The notes: generated by a model from the sequence alone, not told the origin. Counted from the first letter of the stretch, positions 6,768 through 63,633 are shown. The stretch is DNA of 64,000 nucleotides from a virus (IMGVR_UViG_3300031419_000378:1-64000), one strand, 5' to 3'. Numbers and translations are program-made.

Positions 6768-6799
6768 AAAGACTACACACAGCAATTCTTCACTTTCAG

Positions 6800-43588: not shown

Positions 43589-43707
43589 AAGGCGACGGCT
43601 CAGGCAATACAAATCCAATCTTCAAAGCAATCAATGTCCGCTTTGTGCCAGAAGCGGGCCTTGCTAAGATCAATTGAGTTAATTAACCAAACACAGATCA
43701 GTCCGTT

Positions 43708-44901
43708 TTATCTCATATTCGCAATATTTATTTCATCATATTCTTGGAGTTCAACCGTCACACGTATTATTGGAAATTTTCTAGGTCTATATTTACCAAT
43801 TACAGTTGTCTTGACAGGAGGATAAAGCTGCAAAATATCACTCACACCATTGAATAGAGGCCGAAATTTTTTTGATGAAACCATCCCTAATAATATTTTT
43901 TCCACTAAATAACTAAACGAAAGATGAGGATTTGTCTGCATGGTATAAAATAACAATTTAACAACAGATTGGCCGTTCAAGCCGAATGATTTCAATAGCG
44001 TAATTAGCTGAGGAGCATGAAGACACATTCTCGATGATATTATACGATTTTGAGTTGTGACACTAGATGGGAAATAGGACGGCTTTCCGAGTTGCTTGCT
44101 GCGGGCAAGAACATGGTGCACTACCCTTTCCCATGCGGAATTGAAATAGCGGGCGTTATCAAAATACTCCCCAACCTGACTGCCAGCGACATTATTATTC
44201 TGATAAAAACCACTGAGCAACGATCCTAGAGTTTTGTCACATGGATCATTCATTAAAGCTTTTCCAACCATCCATCGGCAAGGCCAGATCGGTGATGAGT
44301 TAGCATTTCTCGTCGAGGCAGCAACTCCATACCAAGCAAATCGACAGGGATCAGAATTTGGAGCCTTAGTTAAGTCAACATTACTCTCTTCAACTTTAGT
44401 TGTATTGGATGAATATGATATGTCAAATTTTGACCATTTACTATAAAGCTCAAATTCTTTATAGGTGCTATTTTTTTTCGAAGAATCATATTTCGTGACA
44501 GGAACATGGCACACTTGGCTTTCTTTTTCCGTTATTTTTGCCTGTAAAATAAACGCTTTATTTCTTTCGCTTAATACACTTTGTGATTGCATGTCAATAA
44601 TCTTTTCATCAAAGATAAACATTGCATCGCCAAGTTCAACTTTCTTATCAAATGGTTTTCCACTGCATAATTTTGCGTAAGGTGCCTTGTCAATCCAGCA
44701 CAACTGAGAGTTTACATCAATAAAAAGTCTGGGGTTTTTTTGTTTCTCATGCTTGTAAATTATTTCTGATAGTTCATCCAGAAAACGTGGTGTAAACAAT
44801 GCTCCAAGTTGTGTTAGCTCGCCGCCAGTTACATTCCGGCACATCTTATTTATAAGATCATCAATCTCTTTCGCCATATTCTCACCACTCACTTTAAACA
44901 C
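43708..44901 (-). CDS. Cassette: putative restriction-endonuclease-fold nuclease
   Basis: VELGDAMFI...KAFILQAKI resembles an E..D...QxK nuclease motif; AT-rich. Confidence 0.55.
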   Translation of the reverse strand: MFKVSGENMAKEIDDLINKMCRNVTGGELTQLGALFTPRFLDELSEIIYKHEKQKNPRLFIDVNSQLCWIDKAPYAKLCSGKPFDKKVELGDAMFIFDEKIIDMQSQSVLSERNKAFILQAKITEKESQVCHVPVTKYDSSKKNSTYKEFELYSKWSKFDISYSSNTTKVEESNVDLTKAPNSDPCRFAWYGVAASTRNANSSPIWPCRWMVGKALMNDPCDKTLGSLLSGFYQNNNVAGSQVGEYFDNARYFNSAWERVVHHVLARSKQLGKPSYFPSSVTTQNRIISSRMCLHAPQLITLLKSFGLNGQSVVKLLFYTMQTNPHLSFSYLVEKILLGMVSSKKFRPLFNGVSDILQLYPPVKTTVIGKYRPRKFPIIRVTVELQEYDEINIANMR

Positions 44902-44994
44902 CCCTTAACATTGTAAATTTTAAATAAAAATCAGACCATCATCATATAATAGTTTACAGACTTCTCTCTCTGCTACTACTGGAGGATAAGCTGA

Positions 44995-45357
44995 ATGCTT
45001 CTGGATAAGCTCAAATTACTCGAATGCAGCCTTCACGGTGATTGGCGCAACGATGGGGAGTGGCTTGAGCAGCTTCTCCACCCTGAATTTAAGGAGATTA
45101 CCCGGTCAGGCGTGATGGTTGACCGTTCAGTAACGATCTCGTCACTATTAAACGAGAAAAAGTCATCGCCTATTATAAGCAGCGATTTCTGGCTCACTGA
45201 AATGGGGAGTGGCTGCGCCATTCTTCACTACCGTACGTCTTGTGCTGACGGAAGCCATCCTGCATTGCGCTCCTCATGCTGGTTGTATTCGGAGGAAGGC
45301 CAGTGGACTCTGTTTTTTCATCAGGCCACGCCTGCAGCATGTAGCCTAGGTTTGTGA
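44995..45357 (+). CDS. Cassette: DUF4440/NTF2-like protein
   Basis: LE..LH...R.D...LEQLLHPEF.EI.RSG..ALRSS.W......W.L.FHQAT. Confidence 0.8.
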   Translation: MLLDKLKLLECSLHGDWRNDGEWLEQLLHPEFKEITRSGVMVDRSVTISSLLNEKKSSPIISSDFWLTEMGSGCAILHYRTSCADGSHPALRSSCWLYSEEGQWTLFFHQATPAACSLGL

Positions 45358-45474
45358 TCGAACACTATACTCGCTGGCAGGCTCATTAAACACTGCCAGT
45401 TGTCTGTTATTTGATGTAGTCATCAGTAAATGTCCGCTTTTCGCTCATAGCGGACCTTTAATCTTACATGTACG

Positions 45475-45663
45475 TTATCGATTTCCACAGACATCAACTT
45501 TTTCACCTGTAAGTCTTTCAACCATCTCCAATGCGTCCGGATCGCCATGCCAGGCCATGCAACTTAAACAGTCTCCGCCACAGTCAAAATTCAATGTGTC
45601 TGGTGTCTTACTCATTGGCTGATTACAGGTCTGGCAATTGCTTTCTTTCACTGGAAGTGGCAT
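45475..45663 (-). CDS. Cassette: small Cys-rich protein
   Basis: CQTC..DCGGDCLSCMA; lies between two B sites. Confidence 0.55.
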   Translation of the reverse strand: MPLPVKESNCQTCNQPMSKTPDTLNFDCGGDCLSCMAWHGDPDALEMVERLTGEKVDVCGNR

Positions 45664-45905
45664 CCGTTTTTAGATTTTTATTTCTATGTTACCTAACATA
45701 TCACCCTTAAATCCGTTCCTCACTCATAGCGGACTCTAGCCTGCCGTCAGTCCGCTTTGTGCCAGAAGCGGACGTTAGTAACGTCGGAGCTGCATAAATT
45801 AGAGGGGAGAAGGTTAAACAAAGGGATGAGATCACTTTCACAGTAAAAAAAGTAAATTTATGTTATCCATGACTATCTCATGCTATAAAAATCACCCATG
45901 GATAA

Positions 45906-47156
45906 ATGCACTTCGATACAAGGAACTATTGGATGGACTTTTTCGAAATTGACGAAGATACTGATTTAGACCTCCTTCATTTCAAATTTAAGGATCTGAA
46001 TAACCAGTTAGGGTACGTCGGTGCTAAAGAGGTTGTTTCTTCTTGGGGAAATGACTTTTATGATCGCGATAAAAAAGCTAAAAAAGAATTTCAAACATCG
46101 TTTCACTCTACTTTTTGGGAGCTCTATCTTCACGCAGTACTGAAGGAAATGAACTTCAAAGTTAGCGAAAAGCATAATCGACCAGACTTTATCGTCGAAG
46201 CCCCCAAAGAGATGTACATTGAAGCAGTAGTGTCAGAGATTAAAAAAGATGGTACTCCTGAAAAACTACGAACTCTAGAGGATGTTGAGGCCAACTTACG
46301 GCCGATTAAAACCAAGCGTGAGTTTACAGATATCATCGATGAGGCAATATCACGTCATTCTAACTCCCTAAAATCAAAGCTAGGAAAATACACTGGATAT
46401 ACACGCAAAGATAATACGCCTATTAAAGGATACGTCGATTGTAATTGGGTTTCGCCTAAGGCTCCATATATAATAGCCTTATCCTCCCATGACCAAATTG
46501 CCTATGGCAGAGAATTTATTTATTCCATGTTTGCTTTACTGTATGGGCACTATTACGACCCAGAAAATAAAGTATACACCAAAAAAAATAAAATTAAGAA
46601 ACCCGGCACTGATTCGGATTTAAATCTTGGAATTTTTTTTAACCCAGAATTCAAAGAAGTTTCAGCGGTTTTATTTTGCAACACACTGACATTAGGTAAA
46701 CTCTCTTCGCTACATAAATCAGAAAAAATAAATTTCGATACAGTTCTAAACATTAGATATTTGCAAGATGAACCGCATTTTCGTGTGCATGAAGTAACAC
46801 CAGAAAATCCCGAGCAATTACTTGATGGTCTGTACATATTCCATAACCCACTTGCCAAAAACAAAATAGATTTCGATCTATTTAATAAGTTAGCACAATT
46901 CTCTGTGGACGAATATGGGCCACATCAAATTGGCAATTATCCTCTACTAGTGTCTAGGTTTCACACCAATATGTTGCCTAGTTCAATAATCCCAAGTATA
47001 AAGACTGATGCTTTTTCAAGCTACAACCCAGAGTACTGTATGCGAGAACTCAAAAAAGAGAGCTGTCTTTTAAAGCCCGCTAAAAGCGAAAGGATCAGGC
47101 AAAAGAAAAAAAGGACAAATAAAATCGCGAAGACTTCCCGCAGAAAAAATAGATGA
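45906..47156 (+). CDS. Cassette: PD-(D/E)XK-like protein (family often mis-annotated 'glycosaminoglycan attachment site')
   Basis: F.DRD.K..KEFQTSF.STFWELYL.A..RPDFIV....YIEAV. Confidence 0.65.
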   Translation: MHFDTRNYWMDFFEIDEDTDLDLLHFKFKDLNNQLGYVGAKEVVSSWGNDFYDRDKKAKKEFQTSFHSTFWELYLHAVLKEMNFKVSEKHNRPDFIVEAPKEMYIEAVVSEIKKDGTPEKLRTLEDVEANLRPIKTKREFTDIIDEAISRHSNSLKSKLGKYTGYTRKDNTPIKGYVDCNWVSPKAPYIIALSSHDQIAYGREFIYSMFALLYGHYYDPENKVYTKKNKIKKPGTDSDLNLGIFFNPEFKEVSAVLFCNTLTLGKLSSLHKSEKINFDTVLNIRYLQDEPHFRVHEVTPENPEQLLDGLYIFHNPLAKNKIDFDLFNKLAQFSVDEYGPHQIGNYPLLVSRFHTNMLPSSIIPSIKTDAFSSYNPEYCMRELKKESCLLKPAKSERIRQKKKRTNKIAKTSRRKNR

Positions 47157-47421
47157 GAAACTTTAATTTCATCAACTATTTATCAGCGCTAAATCTTCCC
47201 TCACAGCAAACTTGATGACTACTAACCCTGTCTGCAGCGTGCCAGAAGCGGACAGGGTTGGACTGTATATAGTTCATGCTACCTCTACTTGCGTTACCAG
47301 ATAATTTAGTCACTACAAAGCTAAAAATCTTGGTAAATGATTTAGTCAGTCATTCAATCATCGCACGTTTATTGCATCACTTAGGTTGTATTAGAATAGC
47401 CATATTATTTAGGAGACGATC

Positions 47422-48312
47422 ATGTTTAAGTATGCCGTAAACTCGCTAGCAGATTATGTTTCAACAGTTACAGAAATAGTAAATGAAGTCGATGACATAT
47501 GGTTTAGAGGACATGCTTGCGCTTCATATAGATTAGCACCTTCGGTATTACGTGATACCGTTCCTTTAACTGATGCCAGAGGTAATAGGGTCGAAAATGG
47601 TCAGGTGATACGTTCAGAGGGCGGTCATGTAACAGGTCTTAGTCCCGAAAATATGTTTTATGAATTTAAGTCTCGAGCGGTTCCTTTTTTGAATCGAGAG
47701 CCCTCAAATAATTTTGAGTGGATGTTCTTGATGCAGCACTATGGCGTACCAACGAGGCTGTTAGACTGGACGACAAACGCCTTAGTTGCGTTATTCTTTG
47801 CTATCGAATCAAATCCTACCTCTGACGAAGAGAGGCATTACAACGAATGGCCCTCGCAAAATTTTATGGAAAGCGATGAGTTTTGCTCGGAAGGAGCTGC
47901 TGTTTTTGCCATAAGCCCATCAGAATTGAATTATCTAACAGTCTCAAACAGATCAAAAATTTATATTTGTGAAGAGGCTGATAAATGGAGTCATTACTTC
48001 GATCCAATGAATAAAAAAGATGGTTGTAATTTTCTTCCAATTGCAGTCCAATCAAGTCATATTGATACGAGAATAAGATCACAATCGGGCCACTTTACAT
48101 TACATGGTTCAAATACATGGGAATTAGACTATTATGATGAGCTTCGTAAAATTATACATAAAATATTTATACCATATGAAGTGGTACCCCAAATGCTTAA
48201 AGATTTGCAAGCTCTAGGTATAACGGAGTCATTTATATATCCGGGACTAGAATCGTTGTCGCGAGATATCAAAAGAAGCGAAGTTTTTAAATTCAACGGC
48301 AAAAAGCTTTAG
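47422..48312 (+). CDS. Cassette: FRG domain protein
   Basis: WFRGHA...L.PSV.R; LMQHYGVPTRLLDWT.N.LVALFFA; RIRSQSG.FT. Confidence 0.9.
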   Translation: MFKYAVNSLADYVSTVTEIVNEVDDIWFRGHACASYRLAPSVLRDTVPLTDARGNRVENGQVIRSEGGHVTGLSPENMFYEFKSRAVPFLNREPSNNFEWMFLMQHYGVPTRLLDWTTNALVALFFAIESNPTSDEERHYNEWPSQNFMESDEFCSEGAAVFAISPSELNYLTVSNRSKIYICEEADKWSHYFDPMNKKDGCNFLPIAVQSSHIDTRIRSQSGHFTLHGSNTWELDYYDELRKIIHKIFIPYEVVPQMLKDLQALGITESFIYPGLESLSRDIKRSEVFKFNGKKL

Positions 48313-48708
48313 CATTTCATTACAACCTGCTAGCCGCTGAACATGGAGTCAATGGCGGCTTATCGCTCATAGCGGACATTGGGCTGGATAGCGTCCGCAT
48401 TGTGCCAGAAGCGGACGTAGCTAACAATATTTTGTAAGGAGCAACTGGGGCAGTTCAGCGCGCCACAGTAATTCGCTGCGCAGGAAGTTAAGCTGCTTAT
48501 ATAAGTTTTTCCAAAAATTTAATTTTTAGCATCTGGCGTAAAGAAAACCTACGTATTGCGAAAGAAAATTCTAATTAGGGGCTTAGGTTAGGTAATTGTG
48601 AGATAGGAGGTGGGATTTAGGAATTTGGCTATATAAGGAATCGAATAGAATGGCTCTAAATATTAAGAGCCATCACAATACAAAGCACGCTACATTAAAA
48701 AAATAAAA

Positions 48709-49461
48709 TTAGCCATCATCTTGAATGGAACAAATACAATTTGCTAGCCGTGTCGGCTTTAAAAGTCGATAAGCATATTTTCCTTTTAAACTCTGAATAT
48801 GCCCTAACAATGTGTATCCACTACGTCTTGATAAGTTACTTTTTAAATCGGATTCAACTTTAGTATAGTCTTTCACAAAAGCATTGTTTGGTGACTCAAT
48901 CATTGCTTCTATAATATCAGCCAACCCTTTAAAACCCATTTTTAAATTATCTAGAGCGACCACATTTAACTCTTCAATGGCTAGCGTCAAGTCAGGACTT
49001 ATATCAGTTACACTATCACCTTGAAAAGCGACAACCCATTGCCCATGAGCAATCCTATTCCTGAGTGCACTTGGCGTTTTCACATAGTCAATGATTAATT
49101 TTTTAATATAAGTATCAGCGGAAGATAATTGAACGGAATTGAATGTTGGTGCTGATAAAACTTTAGCCTTAGCTACTTTTAAGCATCTACGCCATTGAGC
49201 TTCCATTCCTTTTAATTTTTTTATACTCTCTATTTCGCTTAATTCAAAACCATAAGGAGTATGAATTAATTTTGAGAATAACGCTTCAGTCCAAGCAGAA
49301 TAAATTAGCGAAAGAGTTTTCGTATGGATTCTTGCCTCAGTATCTCGATCATTTTTTAAGGCAAGATTCAAACTAATCTTAGCGATGCGCCAAGCTCGAT
49401 CTAATTCTTTTATGTTCTTTGTTTGAGATTGGAACACGATAAGTTGTTGGGCTCTATCCAT
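48709..49461 (-). CDS. Cassette: HEPN-domain putative RNase
   Basis: YSAWTEA (E motif) and LRNRIAHG (RxxxxH); downstream hairpin ATGGCTCT/AGAGCCAT near 48650. Confidence 0.75.
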   Translation of the reverse strand: MDRAQQLIVFQSQTKNIKELDRAWRIAKISLNLALKNDRDTEARIHTKTLSLIYSAWTEALFSKLIHTPYGFELSEIESIKKLKGMEAQWRRCLKVAKAKVLSAPTFNSVQLSSADTYIKKLIIDYVKTPSALRNRIAHGQWVVAFQGDSVTDISPDLTLAIEELNVVALDNLKMGFKGLADIIEAMIESPNNAFVKDYTKVESDLKSNLSRRSGYTLLGHIQSLKGKYAYRLLKPTRLANCICSIQDDG

Positions 49462-49521
49462 AACGCGCCTTAGGATGAAGTTTGCGACTCACAAGTATGG
49501 AAAAAACACTTAGAAAATATT

Positions 49522-49612
49522 TTTTCCATACCTGGAATTGAACCAGGAACCTCCTTCAAACCTCAATAGATGCAGATTTAAAGGCGCTCTACCAAATTTG
49601 AGCTATATGGGC
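49522..49612 (-). ncRNA. tRNA-like RNA with a 32-nt extended anticodon arm and broken acceptor end
   Basis: GCCCATA-TA-GCTC-AAATTTGGTA-GAGC-G-[CCTTTAAATC-TGCATCTATTGA-GGTTTGAAGG]-AGGTT-CCTGG-TTCAATT-CCAGG-TATGGAA; TTGACA on the minus strand at 49642-49647. Confidence 0.7.
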
Positions 49613-50035
49613 ATAGTTATAGTTACAAGCATGTTAAGTTTTGTCAAGTTTTTTTTCGGCAAACCAATGTTCAGCTATATAATGGCTGTAATCGACTAAA
49701 GCATGAGTAGGAAATTCAGACTGAAAACTATCATTAATGCTATAAAATAAAGCTAGCTGCGCTGACCTGTTTCCTGTTGTTTAATATGCCACGTTTTAAG
49801 TAAAACTTCATCATACTGCGAATGTCTTCTCTTCGCTCATAGCGGACATTGTGGCGGACATTGAGCCGGATAGCGTCCGCTTTGTGCCAGAAGCAGAAGT
49901 AACGCAGGATCAGTACAAGTTAATCAACGAAATCTTGGCCATAGCTTTTGCGTTATTAATCTAAATAATGGACATTCATGCCGGATGATTTGAAAATCGT
50001 AAGTCTATGATTTACTTATTCGGACATTAAAGTAG

Positions 50036-50467
50036 ATGAGCCAAAAATTAGAATTCATGTTGTTAGCGCTTGAAAAATCACGTCTAGCGCTCCCAGGCTG
50101 TAGACCAAATCCACCCGTTGGGTGCGTGATCGTCCATAACGGGCAGGTGGTTTCCGATGGCTTCACTCAACATCCAGGTCATCATCACGCAGAGATAGAC
50201 GCCATTTCAAAACTAGAGGTTCCAATTGGTGAATGTGAAATCTTTGTCACACTGGAACCATGCTCCTTTCAAGGAAGAACCCCATCCTGTGCATTGACTC
50301 TTGCTGAACTAAAACCACACCATGTCTATGTAGCCATTGAAGACCCGCATTCCAGAAACAATGGAGAAGGGCTGAGAATTTTAAAAAATGCAGGGGTCAG
50401 CTTTACCTTAGGAATTGGAAAAAGAGAAGTGGAGAAGTTCTTATCGCCTTATTTGGTGAAGTCCTGA
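50036..50467 (+). CDS. Cassette: stand-alone RibD-type zinc deaminase domain
   Basis: PNPPVGCVIV, HAE, VTLEPCSFQGRTPSC; no reductase domain. Confidence 0.8.
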   Translation: MSQKLEFMLLALEKSRLALPGCRPNPPVGCVIVHNGQVVSDGFTQHPGHHHAEIDAISKLEVPIGECEIFVTLEPCSFQGRTPSCALTLAELKPHHVYVAIEDPHSRNNGEGLRILKNAGVSFTLGIGKREVEKFLSPYLVKS

Positions 50468-50700
50468 CAGTTTAAATACAACAAAACAGTGCCGGCCATG
50501 AAAATTATGTCCGCTCTTCACTCAAAGCGGACAAAGGGCTGGTTAGCGTCCGCTTAGTGCCAACAGCGGACCTAGATAATCGCCAGTGGTAATTGCTGAT
50601 AATCCTCATCAGTCCAGATAGTAGCCTTAAGGTTGTGCCATCATGTTCATGAACGTTAAAGTTGCTCAAAATGATTATAGGTAAGATTAGGAAGTAACTT

Positions 50701-51168
50701 ATGGCACGTCGAAGTGAATTAAAAGGTATAGCGATTGCTATTAATGGGAGTTTTGTAAGCAGAAACAACGACTTAAATGGATACTGGTCAATAGGCAAGA
50801 TTAAATCATTCGCTCTTGATAACGGCCTTACCTCAGTGACTTTTCCTCTCACCCTTCCTATGACCAACTCCGCATCAAATCTGCAAAACCATACGGTTAA
50901 CCGCTACGCCAAAATGCTCAAGAGCCTATTAAATAAACAAAAATTACCTAGCCTCTGGGTAAGCAACGCGGTCATTACAATCGACTTTGATGCTAAAGCG
51001 GGACATGCAAAATTGTATGAAGACACCACCTCAGGCGACCTTTTCCAATGCACCTGTAAGATAACTGATGATATTGACCGAGATTACTCATCCATAATGT
51101 ATGGGCGTTGCTTGCCGCATTCTGTAGTTCGAGAGTTAAAATCGACTCGAAATTCACCATCATTTTAA
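50701..51168 (+). CDS. Cassette: hypothetical protein
   Basis: 155 aa; stop codon 1 nt before the B site at 51170. Confidence 0.65.
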   Translation: MARRSELKGIAIAINGSFVSRNNDLNGYWSIGKIKSFALDNGLTSVTFPLTLPMTNSASNLQNHTVNRYAKMLKSLLNKQKLPSLWVSNAVITIDFDAKAGHAKLYEDTTSGDLFQCTCKITDDIDRDYSSIMYGRCLPHSVVRELKSTRNSPSF

Positions 51169-51281
51169 CTTCCGCTCCTCGCTCATAGCGGACATCGGTC
51201 TGCACATCTGAGCACTGCCGCCTGTAGCGTCTTATACTCATTTCAGGAGTTGAAAAACGCTGGTCAAAATGGAGCATTGCA

Positions 51282-51659
51282 ATGGCCTTTCAGAACCCCG
51301 CCCAGAACTACACTGAAACGCGCCTGAACTTGGGCGATCTGGTCTATCTTTCACCTTACTCAACCTATCTGATGCGTAGCGAAAGCGACTGTCCCGGTGC
51401 CGGGATTGTCAAAGGATCTGTGCTGGCCATTGATCGCGCGCTGACACCAGCGCACGGTCAGCTTATCGTTGCTGAGTTTGACGGGGAGCTTTCGCTGAGG
51501 CGGCTGCTTCTCAATCCTGTTCCCGCCTTGCAGGCGCTGGACGCGGACGAGACTATAACGCTGCTTGATGTAAGCCAGGCGCTTCCTGTGTGGGGTGTGG
51601 TCGCTTATGCCCTTACCGATATAGCGGGAGTGGGATTCAACGGACCAGCAGGAGAATAA
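51282..51659 (+). CDS. umuD: UmuD'-like (HumD-type) protein lacking the cleavable N-arm and catalytic Ser/Lys
   Basis: Starts MAFQNPAQNY (equivalent to GFPSPAADY); S24 fold but SDCP replaces GDSM and SLRRL replaces TVKKL. Confidence 0.75.
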   Translation: MAFQNPAQNYTETRLNLGDLVYLSPYSTYLMRSESDCPGAGIVKGSVLAIDRALTPAHGQLIVAEFDGELSLRRLLLNPVPALQALDADETITLLDVSQALPVWGVVAYALTDIAGVGFNGPAGE

Positions 51660-51661
51660 TT

Positions 51662-51892
51662 ATGTTTGCGCTGGCCGACGCCAATAATTTTTACGCCTCC
51701 TGCGAAACTGTATTCAGACCCGACCTTCGTGGCAAACCCATTGTCGTTGTGTCCAACAACGACGGCTGCGTTATCGCACGCTCAGCGGAGGCAAAGCGCA
51801 TGGGCATCAAAATGGCCGCTCCGCTGTTTAAAAATGAGCGTTACTTTCGTGAGAACGGCGTTCATGTATTCAGCTCCAACTACGAGCTGTAG
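51662..51892 (+). pseudogene. umuC: 5' fragment of umuC interrupted at SSNYEL|Y
   Basis: MFALADANNFYASCETVFRPDL.GKP.VV.SNNDGC.IARS.EAK..GIKM..FSSNYEL*; unrelated sequence begins at about 51892. Confidence 0.9.
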
Positions 51893-51962
51893 TAAGTTAA
51901 GTGGAATGCAACATTGATTGGGTAAACTTTGAGCAGCAATGCTGTTGTCAGAGGTAAACACA

Positions 51963-52946
51963 ATGATGATTCCACCAAACGAGGATGTGCTGGTACTGGC
52001 GGAGCGCTGGCTGAAACTGCTGTCCGACCTGGGCCGGGCTCAGACCACACTCTCCGCCTACCGCAGTGCCCTCAGCCATTATTTTGCATTCTGCAGCCAG
52101 AACAGCATTGAACCTGAAAAGGCCCGGTTTGAAGACCTGGCCGCCTACATCAGCCCTCAGTTACCCGGCATGCCTTTTCCCGCAGCCAGCGCCACGCTCC
52201 AGCTGCGCCTTTCTGTGATCCGTCTCTGGTATGACTTTCTGCTTTATCAGGATATATGCAGTCTCAATCCGCTACCCCGTGCGGGTTTACCCGGCGTCAT
52301 TTATACCGGGCGGGGGCTGGTCCCGCGTATCACCCGCTTACCCGTAATACCTGATGATGAGCAATGGCTGAAATTTCTTAAACATGTTTCAACTGCCTCC
52401 CTGCGTGACCGGCTGATGCTCGCGCTTGCCTATTTTGGTGCACTCCGCCGTGCAGAGGTGACAGCCCTGGCGCTTGAGGATATCGACCCTGCGCATCGCC
52501 TGATCCGTATCCGCCCGGAAACAACGAAAAGCAGGCGGGAAAGAATTATTTGTTATGGTCCGGACGTGACGCCGGTACTGGCAAATCATTTTCGGCAGCT
52601 GAAGCAGGCTGGCTGGACACAGGGTGCGCTGTTCCGTTCATTTTCTGATCGTAATTATGGCACACCCCTTTCTGTGTGGAACTGGAGTAAAACCGTACGC
52701 AGATGGGCTCTGGATACCGGGCTTCCACAGATTACAACACATACCTTCCGCCATCTTCGTCTGACCCATCTGGCGCGGGCCGGCTGGAAACTGCATGAGC
52801 TGGCGACTTATGCAGGACACAGGGATCTGCGCACCACACAAATTTATATCCATCTGTCAGGTTACGATCTGGCTGGCCGGATAGCCGCAGCCGTGGCTGA
52901 AACCGACAGGAAAGTCGCCGGACTTATTTTTCAGGAGCCTTACTGA
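51963..52946 (+). CDS. Tyrosine recombinase (XerC/D-size, Tn554 TnpA-like)
   Basis: GALRRAEV (R), TTK, HTFRH (HxxR), AGH..TTQIY (H, Y); GAGG RBS before ATG 51963. Confidence 0.9.
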   Translation: MMIPPNEDVLVLAERWLKLLSDLGRAQTTLSAYRSALSHYFAFCSQNSIEPEKARFEDLAAYISPQLPGMPFPAASATLQLRLSVIRLWYDFLLYQDICSLNPLPRAGLPGVIYTGRGLVPRITRLPVIPDDEQWLKFLKHVSTASLRDRLMLALAYFGALRRAEVTALALEDIDPAHRLIRIRPETTKSRRERIICYGPDVTPVLANHFRQLKQAGWTQGALFRSFSDRNYGTPLSVWNWSKTVRRWALDTGLPQITTHTFRHLRLTHLARAGWKLHELATYAGHRDLRTTQIYIHLSGYDLAGRIAAAVAETDRKVAGLIFQEPY

Positions 52947-55069
52947 TGAATGAAAAAACGGCCAGAGTCACTTATGTGCCTTTTAAACGCACAGATTATC
53001 AGCTGAGAGATGCGTTAAGTCCTGAGGAAAGAGACGCAATAAGTACAGGCTACCGGCGGTCAGCTGCGCTCGACCAGCCAGGTTCTCTGCCGTTTTTGCT
53101 GTTGCCTCTGCAGGACATTGCCTCACGCAGCAGTATCAGTGCCAGACTTGTCAGAATTACCATACTTACAGTTCTTGCAGAAACACACCGGGCGGGTCAG
53201 CCCTGCTGGCTGTGGACGCAGGAAAGGTGGTTAACGCTCTGTCAGCAACACAGTTCCGGCAGGCCTTTGCTTGCTGCTTTTGCCTTTCATCTCGGCCCGT
53301 TTCCCTCTCCGTTAAGCCTGCCAGTGCATGGTGCACCTTCGCTGTACGCCAGTGCCATCTATGGCCGGATTTTTGTCAGCCATGAACTTAACCGGCTGAC
53401 AGACGTTCTGATCTCACTGGGATATGTCGGGCAGAATCAGAAACACAATCTGTCGGGTATGCTGGGTGTTCTGATGCTGATGAATAATGATCCGCAACTT
53501 GAAAATTTTACGACAGAACTGCTGTGGCGGGGGCAGAACTGTCACGACCGGGGGATCGCAAGAGTTACAGGAAAAATATCCTATGCACTTGCTGCTATGG
53601 GGATTATAAAAAGCCCCCTGAGAATGCGTAATTATAAAGAGTGGCATGAAAAGCCAACAGAAGGTATCGCGCCTGACTGGGCCCGATGGTGCCGGAAGTG
53701 GCGGGAAACGTCGGTACTCCGCCCCCGCTCCAGAGAAACTCAGTACAGTTTCATTCTCCGCTGCGGCCTGTGGCTTGCCCGGGAAAAGCCGGAAATATGC
53801 GAACCGTCTGACTGGACAATGGAAACCTGCGCCAGCTTTATTGCAATGGTTGGCCGACTGAAAGTGGACGAGCTGTCACTGGACACAAATAAAGGGGGCA
53901 GGCGTTCAAACCGCTCAGGAAAGCCCCTGATGCCGCATTCCCGCAGCCGGTTTGTTTATGCAGTTCGCCGTTTTATGCTTGATTATGAAAGCTGGGGCTG
54001 GGGGAAATTAAAATTCAGTCCGGCCCGTCATTTGTCCTCGCCTGACACACCGCTGTTTCGTCAGGGCGTGAATCCCCGCGTCATTGATGATCCGGTCTGG
54101 CTGAAACTGGTCTGGGCAAGCCTGAATCTGCGTAAAGAAGATCTGCTGAGCGAAATTCATTATCCCCTGTCTATGCTTCAGGCTATGGCGGTTATCTGGA
54201 CACATGCAGGGCTGCGACAGAACGAGCTGATGCGTCTGACAATGAACTGTATTACTCCACAGGCGGATGACATTCTGCAGGAAAACGGTGGTGCTATCCC
54301 GGCGGGCACTTTGTGCTATCTCAGCGTGCCGGCCGGCAAAACCTCTAAAGCTTTTGTTAAGCCGGTCTCGGCTGTAGTGAAAAAATATGTAGATATCTGG
54401 CTCAGTGAGCGTCCTCAGGAGCAGGCAGCACTTACGGATGAACGCACCGGCGAAAAAGTTCGTTTCCTGTTTCAGAATCGGGGTAAACCGGTGGGCAGGG
54501 ACATAATAAATCTCACTGTTATTCCGGTTCTCTGCGCCAGAGCAGGAATGCCTGCGGAAGATTCACGCGGTCCCATTACAAGCCACCGAGGCCGTGCTTC
54601 TGCCGTTACAGCACTGGCCAGTGTTACCGGGGGCATGTCTTTACATGAGCTGATGCAGTGGTCAGGTCACTCATCCGCACAGTCGACAATGCATTATATC
54701 CGCATCCGTCCGACTCAGCTGGCAGCATCGTTCGTAAAAGCAGACAGGGTCGCTCATATGATCAGCGTGCTGATTGACCACGATCCGGAAGCCGCGAGTC
54801 TGACCGGCCCCTCAACGTACTATGATCTGGGTGACTCATACTGCACGAACCCCTTCTGGAGCAGCTGTCAGCACCGGATGGCCTGCATCGGTTGCGATTT
54901 TAACCTGCTCAAACAGAGCGCGCGCGGACTGATACTGGAAAGCAAAGCCTCTGTCAGACGTTACCTTGAGGAAGTTCCGCTCACACCCGATGAGAGAGCC
55001 ATCGTGGAACAGGACGCAGAGAAAATTGAACAGGCTCTTAAAAGGTTGTCCCTCAAACCCGAAGGGTAA
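52946..55069 (+). CDS. Large tyrosine recombinase with C-terminal Cys cluster (Tn554 TnpB-like)
   Basis: AGLRQNEL, GKT, SHRGR, SGH..STMHY; YCTNPFWSSCQHRMACIGC; TGATG coupling to upstream gene. Confidence 0.88.
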   Translation: MNEKTARVTYVPFKRTDYQLRDALSPEERDAISTGYRRSAALDQPGSLPFLLLPLQDIASRSSISARLVRITILTVLAETHRAGQPCWLWTQERWLTLCQQHSSGRPLLAAFAFHLGPFPSPLSLPVHGAPSLYASAIYGRIFVSHELNRLTDVLISLGYVGQNQKHNLSGMLGVLMLMNNDPQLENFTTELLWRGQNCHDRGIARVTGKISYALAAMGIIKSPLRMRNYKEWHEKPTEGIAPDWARWCRKWRETSVLRPRSRETQYSFILRCGLWLAREKPEICEPSDWTMETCASFIAMVGRLKVDELSLDTNKGGRRSNRSGKPLMPHSRSRFVYAVRRFMLDYESWGWGKLKFSPARHLSSPDTPLFRQGVNPRVIDDPVWLKLVWASLNLRKEDLLSEIHYPLSMLQAMAVIWTHAGLRQNELMRLTMNCITPQADDILQENGGAIPAGTLCYLSVPAGKTSKAFVKPVSAVVKKYVDIWLSERPQEQAALTDERTGEKVRFLFQNRGKPVGRDIINLTVIPVLCARAGMPAEDSRGPITSHRGRASAVTALASVTGGMSLHELMQWSGHSSAQSTMHYIRIRPTQLAASFVKADRVAHMISVLIDHDPEAASLTGPSTYYDLGDSYCTNPFWSSCQHRMACIGCDFNLLKQSARGLILESKASVRRYLEEVPLTPDERAIVEQDAEKIEQALKRLSLKPEG

Positions 55070-55073
55070 AACG

Positions 55074-55097
55074 GGCCGCTATGTGCCAGAAGCGGAC
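55074..55097 (+). repeat. Class A palindromic site 4 nt after the recombinase stop
   Basis: GGCCGCTA-TGTGCCAG-AAGCGGAC, same class and orientation as array sites. Confidence 0.88.
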
Positions 55098-55183
55098 GTT
55101 AATGTATTACCTGTTCAGAAGCAGATTAGTCATTTTAAGTCATCAACAGAGTGCCAAGATGATTAAATTAATGTTTGACGCTG

Positions 55184-55213
55184 ACTATATTTCTATTATT
55201 CTGGAAATATAGT
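55184..55213. promoter_or_regulatory. Probable ArsR-family operator
   Basis: ACTATATTTC-N10-GAAATATAGT inverted repeat between TTGACG and the arsR start. Confidence 0.6.
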
Positions 55214-55226
55214 TATTGGAGCCAGC

Positions 55227-55562
55227 ATGGACTTACATACCGCAGCAAACGCACTTCGGGAGCTGGGCCACCCGACCCGTCTCAGCATATACCGGGAGCT
55301 GGTCAGGGCGGGTCATCACGGCCTGCCGGTTGGCGAACTACAGAAGCACCTTGAGATTCCTGCCTCCACGCTCAGCCATCATCTTTCTGCGCTGATGTCT
55401 GCTGGCCTCATAAGTCAGGAACGGCAGAGCCGAACCCTGTTCTGCAGGCCCTGTTATGCGCAGCTTGAGCAGCTGATGGCTTTTCTGACTGAAGAGTGCT
55501 GCGCCGGCGGCAGCGACTGCAGCCTGTCTGCCGCGATGCCCCTTAAAGAGACTCCATTGTGA
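55227..55562 (+). CDS. arsR: ArsR/SmtB-family repressor
   Basis: [32 protein letters not shown]; C-terminal EECC. Confidence 0.85.
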
Positions 55563-56281
55563 ATAACGTGAATGATGCCTTGAACAATATCGATCCGACG
55601 CTCCTGGATGCGCCCCTTACGGAAGAGAAGCTGAAGGCTGCAGAAGTGCCACACCCGCCCCGTATCCTGATGCTCTACGGTTCGTTGCGGGAACGCTCTT
55701 ACAGCCGGCTCACCACGGAAGAAGCTGCCCGGTTGCTGACGGCTATGGGCGCGGAGGTGAAAATATTTAATCCGTCCGGCCTGCCGCTGCCGGATGATGT
55801 ACCTGAAACGCACCCGAAGGTTGCAGAGCTGCGCGAACTGGTACTCTGGTCAGAAGGGATGGTCTGGTGCTCTCCTGAGCGTCACGGTGCCATGACCGGC
55901 ATCATGAAGACGCAAATTGACTGGATACCCCTGACGTCCGGGGCGGTCCGGCCATCGCAGGGGAAAACCCTTGCAGTCATGCAGGTCAGCGGCGGCTCAC
56001 AGTCGTTCAACGCCGTAAACCAGATGCGCATTCTCGGGCGCTGGATGCGAATGATTACCATCCCGAACCAGTCATCTGTGGCAAAAGCCTGGGCCGAGTT
56101 TGATGAGGACGGTCGCATGAAACCTTCACCGTATTACGACCGCATCGTGGACGTCATGGAGGAACTGATGAAGTTCACCCTGCTGACGCGCGGGCGAAGC
56201 AACTACCTGACCGACCGCTACAGTGAAAGAAAAGAGAGTGCCACTCAGCTCTCAGAGCGGGTCAACCAGCGCAGCATATAA
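55559..56281 (+). CDS. arsH: NADPH-dependent FMN reductase ArsH
   Basis: [47 protein letters not shown]. Confidence 0.95.
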
Positions 56282-56308
56282 AAAAGCCGGCAGATGCCGG
56301 CTTTTTTC
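56281..56308. terminator. Bidirectional terminator between arsH and arsC
   Basis: AAAAAGCCGGCA-g-ATGCCGGCTTTTTT. Confidence 0.8.
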
Positions 56309-56339
56309 ACACTCGTTATGTCCGCAGCCTGGTGAATAA

Positions 56340-56768
56340 TCAGTGGCTGACGCGATGACCGTGCTCATCAATGACCACTTCGCCATCCTCTTTGGTAAAG
56401 GCTCCCTGCTGCGGATCTGGCAGAATGTCGAGAACCGCTTCGGACGGACGGCAGAGCTTCGTGCCGAGCGGCGTCACCACCACCGGGCGATTAATAAGGA
56501 TCGGATGAGCCAGCATGGCATCGAGCAGTTCGTTATCGCTGAAGCGGTCTTCTGCCAGGTCGAGCTGCTCGTACGGTTCGGTATTCTTGCGCAGCAGGGC
56601 GCGTACGCTGATGCCCATGTCCGCAATCAGCTTCTTCAGCTCGTCGCGGGACGGCGGTGTTTCCAGATACAGAATAACCTTGGGTTCGGTGCCGCTGTTG
56701 CGGATAAGCGCTAGGGTGTTGCGGGACGTCCCGCACGCCGGGTTGTGATAAATGGTGATGTCAGTCAT
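56340..56768 (-). CDS. arsC: Glutaredoxin-dependent arsenate reductase
   Basis: ITIYHNPACGTSRNTL..HPILINRPVVVTPLGTKLCRPSE. Confidence 0.95.
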   Translation of the reverse strand: MTDITIYHNPACGTSRNTLALIRNSGTEPKVILYLETPPSRDELKKLIADMGISVRALLRKNTEPYEQLDLAEDRFSDNELLDAMLAHPILINRPVVVTPLGTKLCRPSEAVLDILPDPQQGAFTKEDGEVVIDEHGHRVSH

Positions 56769-56817
56769 AAGCGGTACTCCGTAAAGGCGCTGCACAGTCG
56801 CAACACCGGGGTTAAGG

Positions 56818-58101
56818 TTAAACAGACAGGCGCAGAGCCAGCGCGGCCAGCGTCACAAAAAGTACCGGCAGGGTTATCACGATACCCACGCGGAAGTAGT
56901 AGCCCCAGCTGACAGTAATGTTTTTTTGCGCCAGTACGTGCAGCCACAGCAGGGTAGCGAGGCTGCCGATGGGGGTGATTTTCGGGCCGAGGTCGCAGCC
57001 GATGATGTTGGCGTAAATCATCGCCTCCTTCACCACGCCCTGCGCGGTGCTGCCGTCAATCGAAAGCGCGCCAACGAGCACGGTAGGCATGTTGTTCATG
57101 ACAGAAGAGAGCGCCGCCGTCAGGAAACCGGTGCCGAGCGTTGCGCCCCAGACGCCGTGCTCTGCAAACCGGTTCAGGGCGGCAGAAAGGTAATCAGTCA
57201 GGCCGGCGTTACGAAGACCGTACACCACCAGATACATGCCCAGCGAGAAGATAACAATCTGCCAGGGCGCGCCTTTCAGCACCTTGATGGTATCAATCAC
57301 GTGTCCTTTGCGGGCAACCAGCCAGAGAACACACGCCGCCACCGCTGCCACCAGGCTTACTGGCACGCCGAGTGGTTCGAGAGCAAAGAAGCCGACTAGT
57401 AGCAGGATGAGAACAATCCAGCCGGTTCTAAAAGTGCGCGCATCGCGAATGGCCTCACGCGGCGCCTTCAGTTTCGCCAGGTCGTAGGTGGCCGGGATAT
57501 CCCTGCGGAAAAACAGGTGCAGCGTGACCAGCGTGGCGGCAACCGAGGCGATATTTACCGGCACCATTACCGAGGCATACTCGCTGAAACCCAGCTTAAA
57601 GAAGTCCGCCGTGACGATGTTCACCAGGTTCGACACGATGAGCGGCAGGCTGGAGGTGTCGGCGATGAAACCTGCTGCCATCACAAACGCCAGCGTGGCA
57701 CCGGGGCTGAAGCCCAGCGCCAGCAGCATGGCGATAACGATAGGCGTCAGAATAAGCGCCGCCCCGTCATTGGCGAACAGGGCGGCTACCGCCGCACCCA
57801 GCAGAACGATACAGGTGAACAGCAGCCGGCCTTTTCCGCCCCCCCAGCGGGAAACGTGCAGCGCCGCCCACTCAAAAAAGCCGGACTCGTCGAGCAGCAG
57901 GCTGATGATGATGACGGCAATAAAGGTAGCCGTAGCGTTCCAGACAATCTGCCAGACCACCGGAATATCCCCAATCTGTACTACGCCGGTCAGGAGCGCC
58001 AGAGCCGCACCGATGACTGCACTCCAGCCAATACTGAGGCCCTTCGGCTGCCAGATAACCAGTATCAGCGTCAGGACGAAAATCGCACCCGCCAGAAACA
58101 T
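56818..58101 (-). CDS. arsB: Arsenite efflux pump ArsB
   Basis: [53 protein letters not shown]. Confidence 0.96.
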
Positions 58102-58162
58102 ACCTTCTCCTTTTTAAATAAAGTTGCCCGTTGATCCGGGCAGATGATTATCCCGCACAAAA

Positions 58163-58632
58163 CACATTCAAAAAATCGCATATATGATGGCAAAATTTTT
58201 TAAATGCAGACAGGCTTGCCGTTGGTGGTTGCGTTATCGCGTTCAGCCTGCTGGCTGAGCTTAAGGATGTCATCCCGCTGGCACAGATAAGTCTGTTCAA
58301 TCACTGCTGCTGCCCAGGCTGGCATGTGCGGAGACAAACGGTAATGGATCCACTTGCCGTCTCGTCGGTCGACAAGCAGGCCACTTTCTCTCAGTAAAGC
58401 CAGGTGACGGGAAATTTTGGGTTGTGATTCTTTCAGCGTGGATGAAAGCTCGCAGACGCAGAGTTCACCTTTTTCGCGCAGTAACAGCACCAGGCTGAGC
58501 CGGGTTTCGTCAGACAGGTTTTTGAAAAGCTGCAGGGGCATAAATGGTGGCATGACATTCTCCTGAATTACAGAGTCCAGTGTCGTTTCCAGGACTGCGC
58601 ATGTCAATTTTATATTCGATTAAGCATATATG
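58163..58632. promoter_or_regulatory. Two ArsR-type boxes, upstream of arsB (58163-58186) and upstream of arsR (58611-58632)
   Basis: Shared ATTC-N7/8-CATATATG pattern like the recalled E. coli ars operator. Confidence 0.45.
58200..58553 (-). CDS. arsR: Arsenic-responsive repressor ArsR (start uncertain)
   Basis: LFKNLSDETRL..ELCVCEL...L.ESQPKISRHLALLRESGLL.DRR.GKW..YRLSPH.P.WAA. Confidence 0.92.
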   Translation of the reverse strand: MPPFMPLQLFKNLSDETRLSLVLLLREKGELCVCELSSTLKESQPKISRHLALLRESGLLVDRRDGKWIHYRLSPHMPAWAAAVIEQTYLCQRDDILKLSQQAERDNATTNGKPVCI

Positions 58633-58646
58633 TTAAGGCGGTCATC

Positions 58647-59080
58647 ATGGTCTGTGACAGTCATCAGGTGCACGGGCTGTTCACAGTGGCAGATACGGTA
58701 ACAGAAAGCAGTCTCGAGGCGAGCAGTCAGCTGCACAGCCTGGACGTCAGAACGTCCAGGCTGTTCGGGGAAAAGGTACATACGGTGCTGGCCCGCGCCG
58801 ATATCGGCTTTGCCGTGGGCGCAATGCGCACAGATACCGCCATCGAAACTGCCGACGGGGCTCTGACGGAGGATGACTTACGTAAAATTCCGGCCTTTGT
58901 CCGGCTCTCCAGGAGACATACGGCGTGCTGGTCAGGAACATCATTATGGCAGTTGGCATCAAGGCAGCATTTCTGGCCCTGACCATTGCCGGAATGGGGA
59001 CCATGTGGATGGCGGTGTTCGCGGATGTGGGTGCAAGTCTGCTTGTAGTGGTAAACGGCCTGCGCCTGTTGCGTCAGTAG
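58647..59080 (+). pseudogene. Internally deleted, frameshifted ZntA/CadA P1B-ATPase 3' remnant
   Basis: GLFTVADTV.ESS; LARADIGFAVGAMRTDTAIETAD..DDLRKIPAFVRLSR; shifted frame GMGTMWMAVFADVGASLLVVVNGLRLLRQ*. Confidence 0.8.
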
Positions 59081-59319
59081 CCGGATCGGCTGCCCGTCGG
59101 GTGGGTACTGCAGATAATGTCGCTTTTCGCGTACACCAAAACCCTTGCCACCTGAACAGCTTACAGGGCATGTTCAGGCAGCCCTGTCTTTTGTTGCGCA
59201 TTATCTGTTACTACTGCGTTTTTCCCGCAAAAGGTCAGGCAGGGCTGGCGACGACAATTTTTTGCTTTCCGGCGTATGAAGTAGCTGTCCCTTGCTTCGT
59301 ACCGTGGATGACAGAAAAT

Positions 59320-59646
59320 TCATGCTGCCATATTTCTGCACTCCTGAGCACAATGATGGCATGCTTCTGCGCATTTTTTACAGTGTTCGTGCTCATGCTG
59401 GCCGCACTCATCCCCGCATTTCTGGCAGGCTTCAGCGCAGATCCTGCAGATTTCTGTAGCAAACTCACTGTCAAGCGTCATTAATTTTGCCGCCATCCTG
59501 CAGATACTTGCGCACTGCATGTCCTGGCTTATGCATTCACGCATCATATCGAGCTGAGGCTCCTTCAGGCACGATGCGACACAGTAATCACAGGTTGCGG
59601 CACAGATGTAGCAGGCTTCAATGCAGTTGCGATAATGCTCTGACAT
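59320..59646 (-). CDS. Four-helix-bundle Cu(I) storage protein (Csp3/DUF326-like)
   Basis: Repeated CxxxC motifs (CIEACYICAATCDYC..CAEACQKCGDEC..HCKKCAEAC); no signal peptide. Confidence 0.85.
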   Translation of the reverse strand: MSEHYRNCIEACYICAATCDYCVASCLKEPQLDMMRECISQDMQCASICRMAAKLMTLDSEFATEICRICAEACQKCGDECGQHEHEHCKKCAEACHHCAQECRNMAA

Positions 59647-59936
59647 ATTGTCCTCTCTCACTCGGCTTATTTGCGAATAAGTGGTAAGCCTGGAACAAAA
59701 TCATCATTGGCGCAAAGATACCGCTGTACTCAGCACGGCCGGCAGTTTAACGATGCGGAAAGCGAGAAGGCAGTAAAAAAGAGCCCGTCGCAGCAAGACG
59801 GGCCGGCTCACGTAAGCCTTGAAAGAAGATTTACCGGAAAAAGTATTAATGATGAGGGTAAAACACAACCACATCCCGGAGCAGTGACAGAAACGGACAG
59901 AAGATACCGGGCGAACCTTCTGTCCGGTACGACCCG

Positions 59937-60167
59937 TTATTTTTCCTGCTGCATCATCCTGCGGTGCATATCAATGATGCTCTGATGTGCTGCAGAATTT
60001 GCATTATCCATACTCTGGTGCGCCAGGATGGCACGCTCATGTTCATTCATCATGGCAACAGCGTTATTAGTTACCTGACCGTCCGGCTCTGAAACAGGAT
60101 GCGGCTGTGCCCATACTGATGAGGCAGAAAACAGGGCCAGAAGAGAAACAAACATTAATTTTTTCAT
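59937..60167 (-). CDS. Small PcoE/SilE-like periplasmic metal-binding protein
   Basis: Signal peptide then MMNEHERA..AHQ.M..AHQ..IDMHRRMM. Confidence 0.7.
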   Translation of the reverse strand: MKKLMFVSLLALFSASSVWAQPHPVSEPDGQVTNNAVAMMNEHERAILAHQSMDNANSAAHQSIIDMHRRMMQQEK

Positions 60168-60264
60168 GTCGGCAGTCCTTACGATTAAAAGTTAAATAAT
60201 GGCGGGCCGGATGCTCTCCGGCTTCAGTCATTTTTATCGTACAGGAGAAAAATGCTTCCGATCG

Positions 60265-60322
60265 AAAATGACAGAAATGTAATGTAAAAACAGTAAGTTC
60301 CAACATTACACAATTGTAATCA
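60265..60322. promoter_or_regulatory. Two CusR/PcoR-type copper boxes for divergent promoters
   Basis: AAAATGACAGAAATGTAATG (60265-60284) and ATTACA-caat-TGTAAT (60305-60320). Confidence 0.65.
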
Positions 60323-60453
60323 TGTCCGTCTTTCAGCTGTGATAGCTTTCCGGTAACAAAAAATAAACTTCCTGAACGGTAAGCACGGCTTGTGCTTGCG
60401 GAGCGGAGAGATTTTTTCTCCCGGGATACTGTGAATTTTGCCGGAGCTCAGTC

Positions 60454-62274: not shown

Positions 62275-62308
62275 GGTACTGCTGATGTCAGTTTCAGGGT
62301 GGAGTGAT

Positions 62309-63217: not shown

Positions 63218-63248
63218 TGCAGTTAATTCAAACAAGACAGGTATTATA

Positions 63249-63629
63249 ATGAAACATTCATCTGCTAAGTATTTCATCGCTGTTGTGGCTTCTGTCACTG
63301 CTTTCGCTGTCCAGGCACATCCTGAACTGGCTTCATCAGTGCCTTCAGACAAGGCACAGGTTGCGGCTCCTTCAAAAGTAGAGCTTCACTTCACCGAAAA
63401 TCTGGTGACCAAATTCTCTGGCGCACGTCTGATAATGACTGCCATGCCGGGCATGTCATCGCACGCGCCAATGCCTGTTGCAGCTAAAGTTGCAGCCGGC
63501 AGCGATCCCAAAACCATGATTATCACGCCGGCAAAGCCGCTGCCCGCCGGGACTTATAAGGTGGAATGGCGTGCGGTGTCATCTGACACACATCCCCGTA
63601 CCGGCAACTACAGTTTTAGCGTGAAGTAA
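63249..63629 (+). CDS. pcoC: Periplasmic copper chaperone CopC/PcoC
   Basis: AHPEL after the signal peptide; MTAMPGM; WRAVSSDTHP. Confidence 0.95.
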   Translation: MKHSSAKYFIAVVASVTAFAVQAHPELASSVPSDKAQVAAPSKVELHFTENLVTKFSGARLIMTAMPGMSSHAPMPVAAKVAAGSDPKTMIITPAKPLPAGTYKVEWRAVSSDTHPRTGNYSFSVK

Positions 63630-63633
63630 TGCT

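Follow-up and report, generated by a model that had tools for sequence, protein, structure and literature searches.

A cargo slot holding seven cassettes between two kinds of recombinase-type core sites in a siphovirus-type prophage, and a candidate recombinase for its exchange

Sites and cassettes of the array

The virus sequence IMGVR_UViG_3300031419_000378:1-64000, hereafter the window, comprises 64,000 nt and represents the first 64 kb of a 77,248-bp IMG/VR virus record. Between the tailspike module and the umuDC genes of this phage, at 43636-51193, it carries an array of seven gene cassettes delimited by short palindromic sites, and a pair of genes encoding tyrosine recombinases of 335 and 707 aa follows downstream (Table 1). 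An earlier note on this DNA had described the region as an integron-like gene-cassette array with the recombinase pair as its engine. We examined the sites, their cargo and the recombinases, together with related loci in phages, plasmids and chromosomes.

The window was scanned for GTCCGCTT-N8-AAGCGGAC with up to 3 mismatches, and the result was compared with 100 shuffles. The scan returned 12 matches, exclusively on the plus strand, versus 0.20 expected from the shuffles, and the number of 12 was reached in 0/100 of them. Eleven of the 12 matches are members of the site family; the twelfth, at 59037, is weak. This confirms that the 24-bp co-oriented intergenic sites of the earlier note are real. 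Alignment of the right-arm copies with their flanks separated two site types where one had been claimed. They have 8-bp arms in common and differ in their 8-bp cores: the A site reads GTCCGCTT TGTGCCAG AAGCGGAC and the B site GTCCGCTT TTCGCTCA TAGCGGAC. In total, the array contains 13 sites, namely 6 A, 6 B and one decayed B recognized by reading the sequence; the left arm is worn in 2 of the B sites. The degenerate copy previously reported is thus retained, and the 13 clear copies counted with it become 12 in the array. A seventh A site begins 4 nt past the stop codon of the 707-aa gene, as already noticed, and two more sites, one of type A (69540) and one B-like (70719), lie outside the window in the 77-kb record.

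The layout of the array is A-cargo-B, about 15 nt, A-cargo-B, so that most sites occur as B-15 nt-A doublets, four of which are present. Every site is intergenic and all have the same orientation, though three cassette genes are encoded on the minus strand, which argues against a function as transcription terminators. The reverse complement of the B core (TGAGCGAA) is closer to the A core than the direct B core is. Hence, B looks like an inverted, heterospecific A. The G+C content of the array is 0.37-0.44 compared to 0.50-0.57 on both sides. An Rfam scan of 40-58 kb placed no RNA family on the sites, and its only relevant match was a tRNA-like element in cassette 5.

Two of the seven cassettes match anti-phage defence models, one of them PD-T7-5 and the other candidate models PDC-S15. 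In cassette 1, the 397-aa gene has no known family and the 120-aa gene showed a weak DUF4440 match below the Pfam cut-off; neither gene gave a PADLOC or PHROGs match. Domain, PADLOC and PHROGs searches found no family match for the 62-aa gene of cassette 2 or the 155-aa gene of cassette 7, and the sole match of the 250-aa gene in cassette 5 was a PHROG of unknown function. The tRNA-like element in the same cassette scored 34.7 bits with the Rfam tRNA model and lies inside the stretch that is 94.7% identical to a Raoultella copy. Two of its acceptor pairs are mismatched, its anticodon region has 26 nt versus the model's 11, and ARAGORN made no call for it.

The genes upstream of the array include those for a tail protein and a tailspike/exopolysaccharide depolymerase. 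By position and size, we read 21-23.6 kb as the terminase region and the 1195-aa open reading frame (ORF) at 32641-36228 as the tape measure gene. These readings together indicate a siphovirus-type prophage. The best explanation for 43636-51193 is a cargo slot of a lambdoid-type prophage that holds seven independently acquired cassettes. A comparison of the left 450 nt of the record with the rest revealed no att-core-like direct repeat of at least 12 nt that would mark attL and attR. Beyond umuC, at 69540-70742 of the record, a second slot contains a single cassette, with an A site, a gene for a 230-aa 8xMP membrane protein and the B-like site, whose right arm is worn. A tRNA-Gln gene (anticodon TTG) is located at 6799-6878 on the minus strand amid early prophage genes.

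Table 1. Features of the window discussed in the text, with positions counted from its first nucleotide
Feature	Position	Strand	Remarks
Phage integrase, 414 aa	420-1658		PF00589 match
Tail protein	37569-40286		PHROGs tail family
Tailspike/exopolysaccharide depolymerase, 800 aa	40323-42725		PHROGs tail family
A sites, GTCCGCTT TGTGCCAG AAGCGGAC	43636, 45750, 47230, 48393, 49875, 50548, 55074	+	first positions
B sites, GTCCGCTT TTCGCTCA TAGCGGAC	45432, 45711, 48354, 49824, 50509, 51170	+	first positions
A site, left boundary of the cargo slot	43636..43659	+	scan; homology of related phages (L152-L158) ends 43657-43675
Cassette 1	43660..45431		397-aa gene 43708-44901 minus; 120-aa gene 44995-45357 plus
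B site	45432..45455	+	
Cassette 2	45456..45710	-	62-aa gene 45475-45663; flanked by two B sites
B-15 nt-A doublet	45711..45773	+	B 45711-45734, worn left arm; A 45750-45773
Cassette 3	45774..47187	+	416-aa gene 45906-47156; PADLOC model PD-T7-5, E 1.2e-61
Decayed B, linker and A	47188..47253	+	decayed B about 47188-47211; A 47230-47253
Cassette 4	47254..48353	+	296-aa FRG-domain gene 47422-48312; matches candidate defence models PDC-S15
B-15 nt-A doublet	48354..48416	+	
Cassette 5	48417..49823	-	250-aa gene 48709-49461; tRNA-like element 49523-49612, minus
B-linker-A doublet	49824..49898	+	12-nt duplication inside the linker
Cassette 6	49899..50508	+	143-aa gene 50036-50467, cytidine/RibD-type deaminase domain
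B-15 nt-A doublet	50509..50571	+	
Cassette 7	50572..51169	+	155-aa gene 50701-51168
B site, right boundary of the cargo slot	51170..51193	+	homology to L153 and L154 resumes 51171-51178, into umuD
umuD	51282-51659	+	annotation of the 98% identical plasmid stretch
5' part of umuC	51662-51891	+	annotation of the 98% identical plasmid stretch
Element inserted in umuC	51892 to about 68467 of the record		16.6 kb, ars and cop genes; window part 51892..64000
Tyrosine recombinase, 335 aa	51939-52946	+	
Tyrosine recombinase, 707 aa	52946-55069	+	
A site of the island, with the recombinase module on one side and the ars cargo on the other	55074..55097	+	

Cargo breakpoints and distribution of the sites

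The earlier note had proposed to compare orthologous loci for gain, loss or reordering of cassettes with breakpoints at the sites. A tailspike search for phage contigs yielded eight relatives with 83-99% tailspike identity, which were compared with the record. The backbone is common to all eight, and 7/8 possess an A site at the position of the first A site of the array, where the homology to the record halts. In the two loci that reach umuD (L153 and L154), the last B site is where homology restarts, to extend into umuD. The cargo in between is wholly different: L153 carries one 1034-aa gene, L154 carries two genes, and L156 contains a series A, A, B.A, B. In the aligned left borders, the backbone and the left arm of A are conserved, while the right arm of A and the cargo are variable. 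The aligned right borders of L153 and L154 show the reverse, a variable cargo and left arm of B followed by a conserved right arm of B and umuD backbone. This pattern at both borders implies that the switch takes place inside the 8-bp cores. Tyrosine recombinases exchange strands within the core of their sites.

Furthermore, two of the cassettes recur in unrelated plasmids and end at B sites there. The FRG cassette (cassette 4) is 96% identical in an E. coli plasmid and in many Klebsiella plasmids, with the match ending inside B, and a Raoultella plasmid array beside pifC contains a copy of cassette 5 with 94.7% identity, whose homology stops exactly at the end of B. Both cassettes keep their own left arm of B, and the partner sequence changes at the B core or right arm. 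The proposed comparison thus bears out the description of the region as a cassette array bounded by recombinase-type core sites, with cargo that differs among relatives and breakpoints at the first A and the last B. The contigs of public sequencing runs also contained site joints, but these have sides shorter than 30 nt that stem from the doublets of other arrays and are therefore uninformative on excision at this locus; stretches without contig cover were taken as evidence in neither direction.

Phage P2 (NC_001895) has GTCCACTCTGTGCCAAAAGCGGAC after gene G and a worn B site, ttccgcttctcgctcaaaggaaac, before FI, on the two sides of fun(Z). The record shares with the P2 Z/fun locus an A-border/B-border slot with variable cargo, and the likeness extends to the site family and its layout, the placement beside tail genes and the anti-phage cargo. 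P2 has a single cassette, whereas seven are lined up in the slot studied here, joined by internal B-linker-A junctions, and the prophage around them is of siphovirus type and unrelated to P2. Reportedly, inverted repeats bracketing P2 fun(Z) were described by Nilsson, Karlsson & Haggard-Ljungquist in 2004 (Mol Biol Evol 21:1). The site family, which the earlier note did not recognise from any description, is not new: it is already in P2. No enzyme assigned to the P2 Z/fun repeats was found in the literature.

Breakpoints located at repeats would also be predicted if the sites were short conserved linkers and cassettes were swapped by homologous recombination, of the RecA or Red/Erf type, over 24-65-bp identities. 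Most arrays lack a nearby recombinase gene, in agreement with such a process, which is also named in the discussion of the P2 gpA-gpQ/P4 hotspots, where the exchange pathway is left open (PMC9122126). However, homologous recombination leaves unexplained why the sites have inverted arms around an asymmetric core, why two site types occur in a fixed order and orientation, and why one sequence recurs from Alpha- through to Gammaproteobacteria. Nor does it account for the highly conserved recombinase gene framed from core to core that is described below. Altogether, we regard exchange by homologous recombination as unlikely.

In a species-level genome collection, the A pattern occurred at at least 120 loci, which among the matches listed belonged mostly to Alphaproteobacteria and in part to Enterobacterales; nearly all of the listed loci have a second hairpin 15-25 nt upstream. 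Within the Enterobacteriaceae, an A site was detected in 49/151 genomes, with 1-14 clustered copies each, and the reversed-pattern control in none. Five enterobacterial genomes inspected at looser stringency all contained arrays. Five alphaproteobacterial genomes (Pseudolabrys and Xanthobacteraceae-type metagenome-assembled genomes) possess 41-88 A sites each, arranged in long co-oriented clusters of up to about nine per 20 kb, which look like large chromosomal cassette arrays of the A/B system. The doublet was found in 147 plasmids, mostly of Pantoea, at 1-8 places per plasmid. Among the 40 of these plasmid records that were listed, 37 have no gene annotated under the match and 3 show a hypothetical protein. 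A BLAST search of the phage collection with the doublet gave no match at E <= 0.01, with a query too short for this to mean absence; P2 does have sites.

Tyrosine recombinases near the sites

Apart from the 335- and 707-aa proteins, the record gave a PF00589 match only for the 414-aa phage integrase, and no serine recombinase was found in its 77 kb. According to the earlier note, the 335/707-aa pair recognises the palindromes, and builds and shuffles the array. In accordance with this model, an A site follows 4 nt past the 707-aa stop codon, the arrangement recurs in a remnant of this variant in Pantoea sp. AS142, and the pair is present in the two Pantoea genomes with most A sites. However, the pair resides at the left end of an element of its own. 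Over 18.2 kb, the segment 51248-69493 of the record shares 98% identity with Pantoea agglomerans plasmid pAR1aC, whose annotation gives the order umuD, two tyrosine recombinases, ars genes, cop genes, umuC. The element cuts umuC between the codons for SNYELY and GDMS, and its ends are imperfect inverted repeats (left GTAAGTTAAGTGGAATG, right CATTCCACATAAAC) unrelated to A and B. The same left end abuts divergent umuC alleles in four further plasmids, making five copies in all. Related phage L153 has an uninterrupted umuDC, and one metagenome contig reads across the empty site. Plasmid relatives of the element in Pantoea and Mixta carry other cargo, comprising fluoride and glycolysis genes or sulfur and Dsb genes.

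The A site behind the 707-aa gene was present only in copies 97-100% identical to this element; relatives at 88% and 77% identity have other sequence, without an A site, at this position. Plasmid pAR1aC contains the element and its A site, not the array. Moreover, arrays and recombinase pair, whose co-occurrence the earlier note proposed to examine, seldom go together: the 707-aa protein was found in 3/151 Enterobacteriaceae genomes compared to 49/151 with A sites, and the arrays fetched from other genomes lack the pair, apart from one broken remnant. The unrelated ends of the element, the missing A site in its relatives and the ratio of 3 to 49 genomes imply that the array is not driven by the pair. 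The A site after the 707-aa gene marks the junction with the ars cargo. We consider the model of the earlier note largely refuted, and activity of the pair on the array extremely improbable.

Judged from sequence, the pair would instead be the engine of a Tn554/SE-like element that targets umuC. Tn554/SEs (PMC10214605) share with it the two tyrosine recombinases, coupled and located at one end, as well as the preference for a single target and terminal inverted repeats that are short and imperfect. Unlike in Tn554/SEs, two core genes were seen in the umuC element, in an analysis that included no search aimed at tfp or srap. The likeness was drawn from architecture rather than from a comparison of protein sequences. 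Insertions into umuC are documented for resistance-carrying tmexCD-toprJ fragments (PMC13491359), and a two-recombinase umuC island with arsenic and copper resistance is of the kind implicated in the spread of plasmid resistance clusters. We hold two conclusions with high confidence: the region is a slot of variable cassettes bounded by the sites, and it is not driven by the 335/707-aa pair.

ORFs around 120 A-site loci were clustered. The recurrent families were mostly ordinary cargo, such as LysR, LysE and ABC substrate-binding proteins, and only one family of recombinases stood out, with members of 206-224 aa at two alphaproteobacterial and two enterobacterial loci. This tyrosine recombinase of about 200 aa, here termed sTR, matches PF00589, and the catalytic residues R, K, HxxR, H and Y can be recognised in it. 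It is encoded in 15/151 Enterobacteriaceae genomes, with nine uninterrupted matches, and 12 of the 15 genomes also have A sites; a strict A site lies within 5 kb of sTR in 5 genomes. The nine best matches, from eight genomes, are 88-95% identical to the query. The sTR gene has an invariant frame at 12 independent loci, reaching from a B core (TCGCTCAT) to an A core (GTGCCA), whereas the outer arms vary as those of the sites do and the sequence beyond is unrelated. This core-to-core frame indicates that the sTR gene stands where a B-linker-A doublet has its 15-nt linker. In two arrays, sTR occupies the position of such a junction. Homologues with 52-56% identity are located near A/B sites in two alphaproteobacterial loci. 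The sTR family is very large and bears generic names only. A PDB sequence search with sTR produced one spurious match and no close solved structure.

A truncated 5' end of sTR was also encountered in E. coli plasmid pYS1718-1, where it follows the FRG cassette and a B core at about 13030-13100 of locus L133 and reads MNTSPWNK before a stop codon. Similar Klebsiella copies probably carry the same remnant. The FRG cassette copies of these E. coli and Klebsiella plasmids are fragments caught between transposons; they contribute only the junction of B site and sTR remnant.

The doublet resembles an emptied B-sTR-A unit, as a MITE (miniature inverted-repeat transposable element) resembles its parent element. 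This likeness, the numbers of doublets per plasmid and of A sites per alphaproteobacterial genome given above would be expected if doublets were selfish REPIN- or MITE-like repeats that inserted between resident genes and moved no cargo. Such repeats would be dispersed, but the copies are clustered and co-oriented, with 1-28 per enterobacterial and 41-88 per alphaproteobacterial genome, and a low-copy or co-oriented clustered distribution is not the pattern of REP elements. The hypothesis also conflicts with cargo that differs completely among otherwise collinear phages and with single cassettes that recur elsewhere and end at B sites. Moreover, no Y1/RAYT transposase was found, as the 77-kb record yielded no PF01797 match for a Y1 (IS200-like) enzyme. 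A selfish origin of the doublets therefore appears distinctly unlikely.

A general recombinase of the host, such as XerC/XerD in the case of Acinetobacter pdif modules, could alternatively act on the sites. Arrays are common in genomes without sTR, and the dimensions of the sites are near those of dif, with arms of 8-11 bp and a centre of 6-8 bp. Yet, compared by eye, the arms do not look like the E. coli dif/cer consensus, and the sTR gene is nested in the sites. The involvement of a host recombinase of this kind therefore seems very improbable.

A cassette-exchange model and known systems

We propose sTR as the enzyme acting on A and B sites. Each border of a cassette would be a 24-bp core-type site with inverted 8-bp arms, GTCCGCTT and AAGCGGAC, around an asymmetric 8-bp core, and the two heterospecific cores, TGTGCCAG in A and TTCGCTCA in B, would enclose the cargo in the order A-cargo-B. 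The host or a co-resident element would provide sTR in trans, and sTR would cut and rejoin within the cores, such that each arm would remain attached to the DNA that flanks it. An A x A plus a B x B crossover would then swap a cassette between replicons, as in recombinase-mediated cassette exchange, and units would be added or removed by one crossover alone, either A x A or B x B. The 335/707-aa pair would drive a different element, targeting umuC. We give this model of sTR-driven A/B cassette exchange, derived from sequence comparison, a little better than an even chance.

Several observations weigh against the model. No sTR gene was found in the 77-kb record, in the related phage loci or in 37/49 of the A-site genomes. 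This absence from the record, the related phages and most array genomes suggests that sTR would act in trans or occasionally. Cassette 2 sits between two B sites, which a simple rule of A followed by B does not predict, and the left edge of cassette 5 relative to the Raoultella copy lies 44 nt past the A site, not at A. Finally, breakpoints at short identical repeats are expected from homologous recombination as well. The 44 nt that follow the A site of cassette 5 (48417-48460) are common to L155 9161-9228 and L156 6309-6378. In both related phages they belong to the first cassette, and the Raoultella version of cassette 5 lacks them. An additional breakpoint may thus lie within cassette 5, some 44 nt from its A site.

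The A/B arrays resemble integrons in their co-oriented arrangement, in their mostly single-gene, often promoterless-looking cassettes between recombination sites and in the defence genes among the cargo; many arrays without a recombinase gene are reminiscent of CALINs (clusters of attC sites lacking integron-integrases). In contrast to the folded attC sites of 57-141 bp with their R''/L'' and L'/R' boxes, A and B are double-strand core-type palindromes of 24 bp and of two kinds. Furthermore, A/B cassette genes are found on both strands, and no platform of attI plus promoter was seen. Integron-integrase models stayed at 59 bits (cut-off 265), reached only on the 335-aa protein, and at 25 bits (cut-off 435). 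The 24-bp units consist of 8-bp arms and a core, and the sequence after A sites misfits the GTTRRRY of attC. Acinetobacter pdif modules (XerC/XerD) have oppositely oriented pairs of core-type sites in common with the A/B system and likewise move between replicons without an enzyme of their own. By eye, their 28-bp sites differ in sequence from A and B. A dedicated small recombinase gene is nested in A/B sites elsewhere and the A/B hosts are Enterobacterales, Alphaproteobacteria and phages. The view that the array is neither an IntI/attC integron nor a pdif array, already put forward in the earlier note, is thereby supported, in the case of pdif through a reading of the sites by eye.

A functional analogy is offered by engineered recombinase-mediated cassette exchange with heterospecific lox or FRT sites, in which common arms and incompatible cores enclose an exchangeable segment and arms likewise stay with their own side of the crossover. 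Unlike this laboratory design, the putative A/B counterpart would be natural. Literature searches on the site sequence, on peptides read through the site and on natural cassette-exchange systems found nothing, and we found no published account of paired heterospecific sites with a nested small recombinase as a cassette system.

How hotspots of phages and islands exchange anti-phage and accessory genes is an open question, and according to a survey of the P2/P4 hotspots the exchange pathway still needs experimental work (PMC9122126). The site family described here brackets cargo in settings as different as phage P2, plasmids of Pantoea and chromosomes of Alphaproteobacteria, and the window is an unusually full specimen, with seven cassettes, 13 sites and related phages that give clean breakpoints. 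These breakpoints and the core-to-core nesting of sTR make the question open to a direct bench test with defined substrates. Tentatively, and at slightly less than an even chance, A/B sites and sTR may constitute a second gene-cassette system besides integrons and independent of them, in which recombinase-mediated cassette exchange between heterospecific cores would occur naturally. If so, this system would stock the cargo hotspots of unrelated phages, such as P2 Z/fun and this siphovirus family, as well as plasmids and chromosomes, and its reach would extend across Alpha-, Beta- and Gammaproteobacteria.

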